DNA of 64,000 nt, taken from assembly GCF_036507355.1 (NCBI RefSeq), contig NZ_AP027877.1. One strand, written 5' to 3'. The stretch is from Escherichia coli. GTDB lineage: Bacteria; Pseudomonadota; Gammaproteobacteria; Enterobacterales; Enterobacteriaceae. The translations under genes were made by a program, and so were the position numbers. Each line of letters starts with the position of its first letter. Position 1 is the first letter of the stretch. Under the pieces are notes generated by a model. That model worked only from the letters and a program-made list of their open reading frames with translations, was not told where the DNA came from and searched no databases. Shown piece by piece: positions 7,965-24,154 of the stretch.

Positions 7965-8324
7965 ATGAGCAAACCACCTCTTTTCTTTATTGTTATCATT
8001 GGCTTAATCATCGTCGCCGCATCGTTTCGTTTTATGCAACAGCGACGGGAAAAAGCTGATAATGATATGGCACCGCTCCAGCAAAAGCTGGTGGTGGTGA
8101 GCAACAAGCGGGAAAAACCGATTAACGATCGCCGTTCGCGCCAGCAGGAAGTGACTCCGGCAGGCACCAGTATGCGCTATGAGGCAAGCTTCAAACCGCA
8201 AAGCGGAGGAATGGAGCAGACGTTTCGCCTCGACGCCCAGCAGTACCACGCCCTGACAGTGGGCGATAAAGGTACGCTGAGCTATAAAGGAACGCGCTTT
8301 GTTAGCTTTGTTGGCGAACAATAA
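7965..8324 (+). CDS. yhhM: DUF2500 protein YhhM (119 aa)
   Basis: 119-aa ORF with N-terminal TM segment, conserved position. Confidence 0.9.
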   Translation: MSKPPLFFIVIIGLIIVAASFRFMQQRREKADNDMAPLQQKLVVVSNKREKPINDRRSRQQEVTPAGTSMRYEASFKPQSGGMEQTFRLDAQQYHALTVGDKGTLSYKGTRFVSFVGEQ

Positions 8325-8326
8325 GG

Positions 8327-8596
8327 TTATTTTTTAACTTTAAATTTCTTCTGCCAGACCAGCAGTTCAAACACGCCGAAAAGGAAAATCCGCACCTTTT
8401 CGGCGGTGGTCATCTGCGGGCCATCTTTCGGTAAAGTGGATTTCAATAGCGCCAGCTGCATACCATGCATCAGCACGGTAAAAATCAGCGCCACGTTAAC
8501 GAAAATATTCAGCGGGCGCGGGAAGGGATGCACCAGGTTGAGGATTAAAAATCCCCAAACGCAGAGCATTAACAAACGACCAATATTAATCAGCAT
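8327..8596 (-). CDS. yhhL: DUF1145 membrane protein YhhL (89 aa)
   Basis: ORF 8327..8719 trimmed to MLINIGRLLMLCVWGF...; start overlaps the rsmD 3-prime end by 11 nt. Confidence 0.8.
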   Translation of the reverse strand: MLINIGRLLMLCVWGFLILNLVHPFPRPLNIFVNVALIFTVLMHGMQLALLKSTLPKDGPQMTTAEKVRIFLFGVFELLVWQKKFKVKK

Positions 8597-9182
8597 CACT
8601 TTCTCCTTGTGCTTCGCGTTGATATAGCCGATAAGCCACCTGACCCGCCACTTTTTCCCGATGTAATGACCAGTTTGCCGGAACAGTGGGCAGACCGTTT
8701 TCGACTTCGCTTTCGACATAAATCAGGGCTTCGTCAGCCAGCCAGCCGTTATCTTCCAGTAAATTTATCGTCTCTTCTAACAAGCCACGGCGGAACGGTG
8801 GATCGACAAACACGATATTATGCGGTGTGCCTTTTTGCGCCAGGAATGACATCGCGTTGCTGTTCACCACGCGTGCATTGCCTGCTTTTAGTGTCGCCAG
8901 ATTCTTAATTAACTGCTGAGAAACTGCACGATCCATCTCAATCAACGTGGCCCCCGCAGCGTAGCGTGATAACGCTTCCAGCCCCAGCGCGCCGCTTCCG
9001 GCGAAGCAATCCAGACATTGGGCGTCAACAATGACCGGAGCCAGCCAGTTAAATAACGTTTCGCGTACGCGGTCGGTGGTGGGGCGCAGACCTGGGCTAT
9101 CAGGAACCGGGAGTTTACGGCCTCGCCACTGCCCGCCAATAATGCGGATTTGGCCGCTGCCGGAATGATTCGGTTTTTTCAT
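8586..9182 (-). CDS. rsmD: 16S rRNA m2G966 methyltransferase RsmD (198 aa)
   Basis: MKKPNHSGSGQIRIIGGQWRGRKL...; SAM-methyltransferase motifs. Confidence 0.95.
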   Translation of the reverse strand: MKKPNHSGSGQIRIIGGQWRGRKLPVPDSPGLRPTTDRVRETLFNWLAPVIVDAQCLDCFAGSGALGLEALSRYAAGATLIEMDRAVSQQLIKNLATLKAGNARVVNSNAMSFLAQKGTPHNIVFVDPPFRRGLLEETINLLEDNGWLADEALIYVESEVENGLPTVPANWSLHREKVAGQVAYRLYQREAQGESDAD

Positions 9183-20899: not shown

Positions 20900-21613
20900 A
20901 TGGAAAAAGTCATGTTGTCCTTTGACAAAGTCAGCGCCCACTACGGCAAAATCCAGGCGCTGCATGAGGTGAGCCTGCATATCAATCAGGGCGAGATTGT
21001 CACGCTGATTGGCGCGAACGGGGCGGGGAAAACCACCTTGCTTGGCACATTATGCGGCGATCCACGCGCCACCAGCGGGCGAATTGTGTTTGATGATAAA
21101 GACATTACCGACTGGCAGACGGCGAAAATCATGCGCGAAGCGGTAGCGATTGTCCCGGAAGGGCGTCGCGTCTTCTCGCGGATGACGGTGGAAGAGAACC
21201 TGGCGATGGGCGGCTTCTTTGCCGAACGCGACCAGTTCCAGGAGCGCATAAAGTGGGTGTATGAACTGTTCCCGCGTCTGCATGAGCGCCGTGTTCAGCG
21301 GGCAGGCACCATGTCCGGCGGTGAACAGCAGATGCTGGCGATTGGTCGCGCGCTGATGAGCAACCCGCGTTTGTTGTTGCTTGATGAGCCATCGCTCGGT
21401 CTTGCGCCGATTATCATCCAGCAAATTTTCGACACCATCGAGCAGCTGCGCGAGCAGGGGATGACTATCTTCCTCGTCGAGCAGAACGCCAACCAGGCGC
21501 TAAAGCTGGCGGATCGCGGCTACGTGCTGGAAAACGGTCATGTGGTGCTCTCCGATACTGGTGATGCACTACTGGCGAACGAAGCGGTGAGAAGTGCGTA
21601 TTTAGGCGGGTAA
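20900..21613 (+). CDS. livF: Branched-chain amino acid ABC ATPase LivF (237 aa)
   Basis: ORF 20888..21613 trimmed to MEKVMLSFDKV; Walker A GANGAGKTT. Confidence 0.93.
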   Translation: MEKVMLSFDKVSAHYGKIQALHEVSLHINQGEIVTLIGANGAGKTTLLGTLCGDPRATSGRIVFDDKDITDWQTAKIMREAVAIVPEGRRVFSRMTVEENLAMGGFFAERDQFQERIKWVYELFPRLHERRVQRAGTMSGGEQQMLAIGRALMSNPRLLLLDEPSLGLAPIIIQQIFDTIEQLREQGMTIFLVEQNANQALKLADRGYVLENGHVVLSDTGDALLANEAVRSAYLGG

Positions 21614-21731
21614 ATTATCGATAACCCGGCAGCTAAGTTCTGCCGGGCTCTTCGTCCGTATACAGACTTGTTTCAACTGACCGGGAGGATTAAAACCAGA
21701 CCACTTATTTGCCACGGAAAGGTTCACTCCC

Positions 21732-22478
21732 ATGCATTATGCCGTTGTTGTCATGCTTGAACTGCTTTGCTGTATTCACGCTTACCGTACCGGACAAGAG
21801 CGGTACTGGATTTTTATCATTTTCTGTTTTCCGGTGATTGGCTGCGTGGCGTATTTCGTCATAGTGATGCTGCCTGAAACGGGCGCTGACCGTCACGGGC
21901 ATACTTTGCTGATGCGCCTGCAGGACAAACTCAACCCTGAGCGCCACCTGCGCAAATTAACCGAAGAACTGGCGATTGCCGAGACGAATCAAAACCATTA
22001 TGCGTTGGCTAATGAACTGGCGCGTCTGGAGCGTTACCACGAAGCCGTTCCCCATTATCAGCAGGCGTTAAGCGGGATATTCGCCCATGAAGCGGCAATG
22101 ATGTTAAGCCTGGCGCAGGCACAGTTTGCTATTCAGGAGTTCGCCGCCTGTCAGCAGACGCTGGAAGATGTGATGCGTTATAACCCTGATTTTCAGTCGG
22201 CAGACGGGCATTTGTTATTTGCCAGAACGTTAGCCGCACAAGAAAAATACGCTGATGCGGAAAGCGAGTTTGAAGTATTGATTTCTTATTACCCCGGCCC
22301 GCAGGCGCGTATTTACTATGCGGAAATGTTGGCGAAAATGAGTCGGTTACGTGAAGCCAACGAGCAGTATGTTGCTGTAGTTGATACGGCTAAACGCTCA
22401 AGACCTCATTATAGAAAACACCACCGGGAATGGATTAAGACCGCCAATGAACGGCTGAAGCAGAGTGTGGTGCAATGA
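21732..22478 (+). CDS. Hypothetical protein: PLDc_N-like two-helix membrane anchor plus soluble helical (TPR-like) domain (248 aa)
   Basis: N-terminus IHAYRTGQERYWIFIIFCFPVIGCVAYFV resembles the PLD N-terminal membrane module; remainder predicted helical; not part of the K-12 livF-ugpB junction as I recall it. Confidence 0.6.
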   Translation: MHYAVVVMLELLCCIHAYRTGQERYWIFIIFCFPVIGCVAYFVIVMLPETGADRHGHTLLMRLQDKLNPERHLRKLTEELAIAETNQNHYALANELARLERYHEAVPHYQQALSGIFAHEAAMMLSLAQAQFAIQEFAACQQTLEDVMRYNPDFQSADGHLLFARTLAAQEKYADAESEFEVLISYYPGPQARIYYAEMLAKMSRLREANEQYVAVVDTAKRSRPHYRKHHREWIKTANERLKQSVVQ

Positions 22479-22701
22479 AAATCTTCTTTGCCGTTAGACC
22501 AGTGTCGCGGCAATCTTTTGTTAAAATTGAAAAATGTAGCTCTCATCGGGCAGCAAAACTGGACGCAGAATTTGCTGCCATTTTTGCTCTTCATGGTAAG
22601 GAGTTCTGGCGATTAGCTGGCCGTTAATCGCCTCTTTTCAGTGCATTCTCGGGATATCCGTGCCCCATCTCCCATTTTCCCTCACCCGTACCGTCACCGC
22701 C

Positions 22702-22719
22702 TTGTCATCTTTCTGACAC
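22702..22719 (+). promoter_or_regulatory. Putative Pho box (PhoB site) in the ugpB promoter region
   Basis: ttgtcatctttctgacac approximates the CTGTCAT-N4-CTGTCAC consensus, ~120 nt upstream of ugpB. Confidence 0.45.
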
Positions 22720-22837
22720 CTTACTATCTTACAAATGTAACAAAAAAGTTATTTTTCTGTAATTCGAGCATGTCATGTTACCCCGCGAGCATAAAACGCG
22801 TGAATTCGCGCATTCGGTACAACAAGAGAGATAAACG

Positions 22838-24154
22838 ATGAAACCGTTACATTATACAGCTTCAGCACTGGCGCTCGGACTGGCGTTAATGGGGAATGCA
22901 CAGGCAGTGACAACCATTCCGTTCTGGCATTCTATGGAAGGGGAACTGGGTAAAGAGGTGGATTCTCTGGCCCAACGTTTTAACGCCGAAAACCCGGATT
23001 ACAAAATTGTACCGACCTATAAAGGCAACTACGAACAGAATTTAAGCGCGGGGATTGCCGCATTTCGTACCGGCAATGCTCCGGCTATTTTGCAGGTTTA
23101 TGAAGTTGGCACCGCCACCATGATGGCGTCGAAAGCCATTAAACCGGTATATGACGTGTTTAAAGAGGCGGGGATTCAATTCGATGAGTCGCAGTTTGTG
23201 CCGACGGTTTCCGGTTACTACTCCGACAGCAAAACGGGCCACTTACTCTCCCAGCCATTCAACAGCTCGACCCCCGTTCTCTATTACAACAAAGACGCCT
23301 TCAAGAAAGCAGGATTAGACCCGGAACAGCCGCCGAAAACCTGGCAGGATCTGGCGGACTATTCTGCAAAACTGAAAGCCTCCGGAATGAAGTGCGGCTA
23401 CGCCAGCGGCTGGCAGGGCTGGATCCAACTGGAAAACTTTAGCGCCTGGAACGGTCTGCCGTTTGCCAGCAAAAACAACGGTTTTGACGGCACAGACGCG
23501 GTGCTTGAGTTCAACAAGCCGGAGCAGGTGAAACACATCGCCATGCTCGAAGAGATGAACAAGAAGGGCGATTTCAGCTACGTCGGGCGTAAGGATGAAT
23601 CCACCGAGAAGTTCTATAACGGTGATTGCGCGATGACCACCGCCTCTTCCGGTTCTCTCGCTAATATTCGTGAGTACGCCAAATTTAACTATGGCGTAGG
23701 CATGATGCCTTACGACGCCGATGCGAAAGATGCACCGCAAAACGCCATTATCGGCGGGGCCAGCCTGTGGGTGATGCAGGGCAAAGATAAAGAAACGTAT
23801 ACCGGCGTGGCGAAGTTCCTCGACTTCCTCGCGAAGCCAGAAAACGCTGCCGAGTGGCATCAGAAAACCGGTTATCTGCCAATCACCAAAGCGGCGTATG
23901 ACCTGACTCGTGAGCAGGGCTTTTACGAGAAAAACCCAGGTGCGGATACCGCGACGCGTCAGATGCTGAACAAGCCGCCGTTGCCGTTCACCAAAGGTCT
24001 ACGTCTGGGCAACATGCCGCAGATCCGCGTGATTGTGGATGAAGAGCTGGAGAGCGTGTGGACCGGTAAGAAGACACCACAGCAGGCACTGGATACCGCC
24101 GTTGAGCGTGGAAATCAGTTGCTGCGCCGCTTTGAGAAATCGACGAAGTCTTAA
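22838..24154 (+). CDS. ugpB: sn-glycerol-3-phosphate periplasmic binding protein UgpB (438 aa)
   Basis: 438 aa with signal peptide. Confidence 0.95.

Follow-up and report, generated by a model that had tools for sequence, protein, structure and literature searches.

Cardiolipin synthase A (ClsA) of Escherichia coli carries a hairpin of two transmembrane domains (TMDs); TMD2 contains a conserved PxxG motif, and both the inter-helix loop and the linker behind TMD2 bear positive charges (Sawasato, Dowhan, Bogdanov; PMC11698083). Its globular domain is cytoplasmic in wild-type cells and inverts upon depletion of phosphatidylethanolamine (PE) or osmotic down-shock (PMC11698083). The inversion needs the hairpin; the PxxG motif itself is dispensable (PMC11698083). 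Two Glu residues added after TMD2 render the domain periplasmic (PMC11698083). A charge pattern of this kind blocks translocation in LepB and keeps the ClsA domain cytoplasmic (PMC11698083). We here describe a gene that puts a hairpin of this class, PLDc_N in Pfam terms, in front of a tetratricopeptide repeat (TPR) domain instead of the phospholipase D (PLD)/HKD catalytic domain. It lies between livF and ugpB in a stretch of 64,000 nucleotides of E. coli DNA (contig NZ_AP027877.1), the whole of which is called the window. The gene is real, is under purifying selection and has homologues of the same architecture; it is ancestral at its site and was later lost in part of the species, and it has no conserved operon partner.

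LapB and YfgM likewise have a small N-terminal membrane anchor followed by a partner-recruiting TPR domain at the inner membrane, and this is also our working model for the new protein. The anchors differ. LapB and YfgM possess a single transmembrane helix, whereas the TPR family has the PLDc_N hairpin, and YfgM faces the periplasm. The best, yet weak, sequence similarities of the TPR domain are those to the periplasmic proteins CpoB/YbgF and LbcA/PA4667; they are confined to generic TPR positions, and both proteins are exported or lipoproteins without a hairpin anchor. The same hairpin occurs outside cardiolipin synthase in stand-alone small PLDc_N membrane proteins such as YxlE of Bacillus subtilis. 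These comprise some 60-70 amino acids (aa) and, unlike the TPR family, lack a soluble domain.

A conserved protein family

The junction holds an open reading frame (ORF) of 248 codons with an ATG start (21732-22478, plus strand), livF ending at 21613 and ugpB starting at 22838. RefSeq labels the E. coli gene only as "tetratricopeptide repeat protein" (WP_000558842.1), and in the literature we found no paper on it. It is thus already annotated in generic terms, yet uncharacterised. The identical protein sequence occurs in 83 E. coli contigs; from WP_000558842.1 it differs by G99E. Codon 99 (22026-22028), a helix-A position of TPR1, specifies Glu in the window and Gly in WP_000558842.1 (O157:H7, FDAARGOS_943) as well as in the other Escherichia and Citrobacter orthologues compared. 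The Pseudomonas indica orthologue, however, likewise has Glu at residue 99, and the change is therefore probably tolerated.

Among Escherichia orthologues the ratio of non-synonymous to synonymous substitution rates (dN/dS) is 0.08-0.20. The gene is real and functional, and selection on it is purifying. Searched exhaustively with phmmer, 1.84 billion representatives of 50%-identity clusters yielded 1,625 matches at E ≤ 1e-3, 799 at E ≤ 1e-10 and 120 at E ≤ 1e-30. The best 150 are nearly all 240-255 aa long and align end to end, which implies one fixed family architecture; the start codon and the length are the same throughout several proteobacterial classes. With one genome scanned per species, 154 relatives were found. 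They are distributed over Escherichia, Citrobacter and Pseudocitrobacter, many species of Pseudomonas (P. alcaligenes, P. chengduensis, P. composti, P. toyotomiensis, P. indica and P. khazarica among them), the Lysobacterales (Luteimonas, Pseudoxanthomonas, Rhodanobacteraceae), Bradyrhizobium, Rhodopseudomonas and diverse proteobacterial metagenome-assembled genomes. Salmonella, Klebsiella and Enterobacter have no representative among the 80 best loci. The combination of PLDc_N hairpin and TPRs is a conserved family that lacks a family-specific model in Pfam and NCBIfam. It thus offers a well-folded protein that is kept by selection across Gamma- and Alphaproteobacteria and has so far escaped the literature that we could find.

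Domain architecture

AlphaFold2, run on an alignment of 114 family sequences, returned a model with a mean predicted local distance difference test score (pLDDT) of 96.1 and a predicted template modelling score (pTM) of 0.84. The gene and its parts are as follows.

21732-22478, plus strand: the TPR gene, 248 aa (ORF call, dN/dS and pLDDT as given above)
21732-21881, plus strand: hairpin, aa 1-50, two hydrophobic helices with the basic loop R19-T-G-Q-E-R24 and the motif W26-x7-P34-x2-G37-x3-Y41...P48 (hydropathy, PLDc_N matches, BLASTP to ClsA, family conservation)
21882-21986, plus strand: linker, aa 51-85, two helices, with P69 conserved in a D/N-P-E-R turn (DSSP of the AlphaFold2 model, column composition)
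21987-22397, plus strand: TPR domain, aa 86-222, four helix pairs
22398-22475, plus strand: basic C-terminal helices, aa 223-248, with H-Y-R-K-x-H-R-E-W234 (AlphaFold2, conservation)

According to DSSP, the helices of the model span residues 2-19 and 25-51 (broken at P34) in the hairpin, 54-67 and 71-82 in the linker, 86-222 in the four TPR pairs, and 225-230 and 232-247 at the C-terminus. Hydropathy marks aa 3-18 and 26-47 as hydrophobic, with YRTGQERY between them.

With 36 bits against a cut-off of 25, the Pfam model TPR_19 assigns the protein to the TPR superfamily. The original prediction, which had been made from the letters alone, had described the part behind the N-terminus as helical and TPR-like with a basic C-terminus. 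Both statements hold: the last 35 residues (214-248) have an isoelectric point of 11.0, and the tail contains the family-conserved motif H-Y-R-K-x-x-R-E-W234. In TPR3-4 the family conserves N-P-D-F-x-S-x-[DE]-G-H-L-L-Y-A-R (151-165), E179 and Y-Y-P-G-x-E-A-R (186-193). Some of these residues would face the concave groove, as judged from canonical TPR numbering rather than from model coordinates.

Closer affiliations were not obtained. NCBIfam gave only sub-threshold generic TPR matches, the best being tol_pal_ybgF (TIGR02795) with 30.5 bits, far below the equivalog cut-off of 90.1, and CpoB/YbgF was rejected on this ground. LapB/YciM was rejected too: neither NCBIfam nor Pfam showed a LapB or rubredoxin match, and where LapB ends in a rubredoxin-type zinc domain, the new protein has a basic helix that contains no Cys cluster. 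NCBIfam likewise indicated no family link to YfgM. The best match by sequence in the Protein Data Bank (PDB) is LbcA/PA4667. The TPR similarities are generic, with identities of at most 20%, and a specific solved relative of the family was not found.

The hairpin and its relation to ClsA

The N-terminal peptide quoted in the original prediction is present in the window ORF, and it had been likened to PLDc_N. For the window protein itself the Pfam match (PF13396) stays below threshold: 20.0 bits against a gathering cut-off of 23.3, E 6.9e-4, covering helix 2 only (aa 26-44). The family does better. PLDc_N is matched by 69 of its 114 members at E ≤ 0.01, the best with 4.7e-7, so that homology of the family to PLDc_N is likely despite the score of the window sequence. 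Further, BLASTP against residues 1-80 of E. coli ClsA aligns W26-x7-P34-x2-G37-x3-Y41 with W40-x7-P48-x2-G51-x3-Y55 of ClsA, and the window protein displays the PLDc_N signature of a hydrophobic helix pair with W...PxxG...Y. The domain reading of the original prediction was essentially right, while its interpretation as a whole is supported in part.

What the two proteins have in common is the placement at the extreme N-terminus, the two hydrophobic helices, the basic loop, the basic linker and the identical spacing of W-x7-P-x2-G-x3-Y. Apart from the different domain that follows, the TPR family deviates from ClsA by its own invariant H16 and its (R/K)-T-G-R loop. It is not a member of the cardiolipin synthase/PLD superfamily: the protein has merely 248 aa and no Pfam PLDc match (two HKD domains are required), and with the cardiolipin synthase model TIGR04265 the score is 11.8 bits (cut-off 290), at the N-terminus only.

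Within the family the hairpin is strongly conserved: H16 in 97% of the sequences, W26 in 99%, P34 in 91%, G37 in 99%, Y41 in 99% and P48 in 96%, with [RK]19-T-G-R as the loop. Its column entropy is the lowest of the four regions, and 7 of its 50 columns are conserved to at least 90%, as compared to 12 of 137 in the TPRs. Polar residues are kept inside the predicted membrane helices, namely Q10 (67%; E in E. coli), the already mentioned H16 and E45 (61%; V in E. coli), which is unusual for a passive anchor. The constraint goes beyond what a plain anchor needs, and the hairpin is therefore probably also in contact with particular lipids or with a partner in the membrane.

Likely membrane topology and role

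The distribution of charges is instructive. In the family, the mean numbers of Lys plus Arg (K+R) and Asp plus Glu (D+E) are 0.03 and 0.02 in the N-tail of about 4 aa, 2.2 and 0.5 in the inter-helix loop, and 3.9 and 1.4 in the 18 aa that follow helix 2; in the window protein, 6 of the 30 residues past helix 2 are K/R. The first linker helix of the family is amphipathic, with hydrophobic residues at positions 56, 59, 63 and 67 and a K/R-rich remainder, as expected for a helix that rests on the anionic leaflet facing the cytoplasm. The charge pattern is frustrated in the same way as in ClsA. It favours a cytoplasmic TPR domain irrespective of whether the hairpin is N-in/C-in or helix 2 only dips into the membrane. 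One observation weighs against this orientation: in Escherichia the first 18 residues of the linker are net neutral (E49, D53 and D65 versus R54, R62 and K66). On balance, the charges suggest that the TPR domain is probably cytoplasmic.

We therefore lean, if only slightly, towards a stand-alone adaptor or scaffold that is tethered to the inner membrane, faces the cytoplasm and serves a client encoded elsewhere. The PLDc_N-type hairpin would keep the TPR domain close to the inner membrane on its cytoplasmic side, and the conserved residues of the concave TPR face would bind a peptide motif of the client.

The strongest competitor is a periplasmic TPR domain behind an N-out/C-out hairpin as in LepB, with a function in envelope biogenesis or maintenance like that of CpoB, YfgM, NlpI or LbcA. 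We consider it unlikely. Its best arguments are that tol_pal_ybgF and LbcA/PA4667 top the lists of NCBIfam and PDB matches, the former below cut-off, that the family N-tail without K/R fits a translocated N-terminus, and that the linker of Escherichia carries no net charge, E49 and D53 lying near helix 2. The TPR similarities are, however, generic, and neither a signal peptide nor a lipobox is present. The basic residues behind helix 2, in the family as well as in the window protein, correspond to the pattern that prevents translocation in LepB (PMC11698083).

Another idea is that the hairpin works as a lipid-responsive topology switch, as is reported of ClsA. A drop in PE or an osmotic down-shock would then move the TPR domain across the membrane or off its surface, and the protein would be a lipid-state sensor and adaptor through which the PE/cardiolipin balance of the inner membrane governs where a TPR scaffold sits or whether it is available. 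Hairpin class, PxxG motif and frustrated charge pattern are indeed shared with ClsA, and no other region of the family is as constrained as the hairpin. The proposal is nevertheless pure analogy, the PxxG motif is dispensable for dual topology in ClsA (PMC11698083), and it is hard to see what purpose would be served by moving a TPR scaffold across the membrane. We regard it as rather improbable. If true, PLDc_N would be a portable lipid-responsive module, and the flipping of ClsA would be a general property of the domain family. In any case, a second, non-enzymatic protein with a ClsA-class hairpin makes it possible to ask whether inversion belongs to the PLDc_N module itself.

Presence and loss in Escherichia and its relatives

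The original prediction had seen an extra ORF without counterpart in K-12, and had suggested to look for its presence or absence across E. coli. The lack in K-12 is correct.

21614-22654, no strand: allele-specific segment of 1,041 bp, in the K-12 type 215 bp with repetitive extragenic palindromic (REP) elements (pairwise and three-way alignments, the latter with E. albertii; genome counts)

The junction was searched by megablast in 5,426 complete E. coli genomes. The flanks were found in 5,425 of them, the full 1.7 kb in 659 only, and the TPR gene itself in those same 659 (about 12%). Among the carriers are O157:H7 EDL933, many further strains of O157, O145:H28 and a mixture of isolates from humans, animals and the environment. 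The K-12-type spacer of 398 bp was detected in 4,630 genomes; it matches at a median of 11 places per genome because of the REP elements within it. Thus, about 85% of the complete genomes keep liv and ugp without the TPR gene.

The word "extra", however, has to be turned around. In Citrobacter freundii the gene occupies the same position, directly after livF, with 75% amino-acid identity. Orthologues at 94-95% occur in Escherichia sp. E1V33 (a cryptic Escherichia clade), Escherichia sp. MOD1-EC7003, E. whittamii and E. albertii, and E. fergusonii records contain the gene as well. The ORF is uninterrupted in C. freundii, E. whittamii, E1V33 and MOD1-EC7003, and the first three also keep it in synteny. 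In the type strain of E. albertii, NBRC 107761 (L015 in our numbering of loci, 8001-8750) a frameshift near codon 185 makes it a pseudogene, which is a second, independent route to gene loss within the genus. In the three-way alignment the REP-proximal half of the spacer in K-12 runs collinear with what lies 3' of the gene in E. albertii; this half comprises the REP, the run ...GCATGAAACGAT...AATCTGTAG.GTTTGA... and everything from there to the ugp promoter segment. The ancestral order was hence livF, TPR gene, REP, ugp, and the K-12-type allele arose from it by deletion. In Escherichia and Citrobacter the livF-ugpB junction ancestrally contained the gene; lineages including K-12 have since lost it and kept the REP elements. 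Genome annotation should accordingly record a deletion at this junction in K-12 instead of an island in O157:H7.

Two REP-like units, a BIME-like element, are seen in the K-12 spacer (L002, 2215-2612); one of them is common to the sequence downstream of the E. albertii gene. This suggests that the deletion was REP-associated. Between E. coli and C. freundii the TPR gene has diverged more (dN 0.16, dS saturated) than livF (dS 0.71) and ugpB (dS 1.08), which fits a weakly expressed, faster-evolving gene; the divergence alone does not prove strictly vertical descent. The absence from about 85% of E. coli and the E. albertii pseudogene imply that the gene is dispensable, and an accessory, condition-specific role is to be expected. 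E. coli thereby provides natural presence and absence alleles, with O157:H7 and about 12% of the complete genomes on one side and K-12 on the other.

The junction is a variable spot in Citrobacter too. In C. freundii CP055551 (L007, 6850-8324) two small ORFs (93 and 135 aa, no Pfam match) and a gene pair for a Phd/YefM antitoxin and a Fic-domain protein lie between the TPR gene and ugpB. In MOD1-EC7003 (L011, 5802-7001) a 231-aa ORF begins at an ATGA overlap with the TPR gene stop and is followed by a 140-aa ORF that resembles an IS200-type transposase. There ugpB is not adjacent, which means that the junction was rearranged.

Neighbours and partners

In the 80 best loci, ORFs were called, five genes on each side were clustered by BLASTP, and loci were counted. 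The commonest neighbour cluster, a generic ABC ATPase (LivG/LivF-like), was present at 11 of the 80 loci; the remaining clusters, with at most 9 loci each, track lineage synteny. The loci of P. indica and Exilibacterium have no neighbours in common. Accordingly, a conserved operon partner was not detected among the 80 loci, and a client cannot be inferred from the neighbours. One locus has a second family member immediately upstream of the first, a tandem duplicate.

These data bear on the suggestion that the gene is coupled to its E. coli neighbours, be it as an accessory to the Liv importer for branched-chain amino acids, to the Ugp importer for glycerol-3-phosphate, or under Pho control. 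It does share the strand with both liv and ugp and adjoins them, and the weak U-tail of the hairpin behind livF (see below) would make read-through from liv possible. The adjacency is, however, limited to Escherichia, Citrobacter and Pseudocitrobacter; Pseudomonas, Lysobacterales, Bradyrhizobium and other groups have unrelated genes next to it. Moreover, the large majority of E. coli run both importers without the gene, and the latter has its own terminator-like hairpin ahead of the ugp promoter segment. This segment comprises the final 183 bp before ugpB, in which pairwise alignment reveals a near-perfect match between the window and the K-12 type, and which we take to be the site of the ugp promoter region. 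A scan for Pho boxes (CTGTCATAWAWCTGTCAY with up to 3 mismatches) gave zero matches in the window, even at ugp, and is hence uninformative. We hold a functional tie of the TPR gene to liv or ugp for very improbable.

Even less credible is horizontally acquired cargo for defence or virulence that was inserted into the livF-ugpB spacer. The patchy occurrence in E. coli, the presence in O157:H7 and the slightly low GC content at third codon positions (0.54, as compared to 0.70 and 0.64 in the flanking genes) might evoke this thought. Yet a search of PADLOC-DB gave no defence-protein match at E ≤ 1, the 80 loci do not show a conserved defence-island context, and the window lacks mobile-element features. 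The gene is syntenic in sister species and Citrobacter, and the K-12 spacer retains the E. albertii 3' sequence. That the ORF is spurious, an outcome the original prediction had envisaged for the case of poor conservation, or that it is decaying, as the E. albertii frameshift and the loss from most E. coli might hint, is practically excluded and for the window copy refuted by its low dN/dS, the large family with conserved start and length across classes, and a pLDDT of 96.

Signals around the gene

21624-21647, plus strand: GC-rich hairpin directly 3' of the livF stop, with a weak U-tail (folding energy -17.1 kcal/mol, z -3.0; alignment)
21668-21696, plus strand: candidate sigma-70 promoter, TTGTTT, 17-nt spacer, TAAAAC (read from the sequence)
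22608-22641, plus strand: terminator-like hairpin and T-run, 130 nt past the TPR gene stop (folding energy -19.5 kcal/mol, z -3.85)

The structure of the first hairpin is kept in the C. freundii alignment, and the element may be a partial terminator or may stabilise RNA. The putative promoter lies within a block that is also kept in C. freundii (ACAGACTTGTTTCA...GGAGG.TTAAA); a consensus promoter scan made no call at this place. Searching Rfam with 21400-23000 produced a chance match only (18.7 versus 56 bits) and no credible RNA element.

A 50-aa ORF at 22475-22627, the ATG of which overlaps the TGA of the TPR gene as ATGA, was rejected as coding. In E. whittamii and clade E1V33 this region is either missing or of another sequence, and in E. 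albertii it lacks the ATG. The ORF terminates inside the terminator hairpin, and 22475-22627 is most likely a non-coding 3' untranslated region. The 3' region of the gene (22479-22654 of the window as compared to our loci L010 and L014) varies by lineage. E. coli has about 175 nt with their own hairpin; in E. whittamii and clade E1V33 a short hairpin of a different kind immediately precedes the ugp promoter segment. Terminators 3' of the TPR gene have turned over repeatedly in Escherichia.
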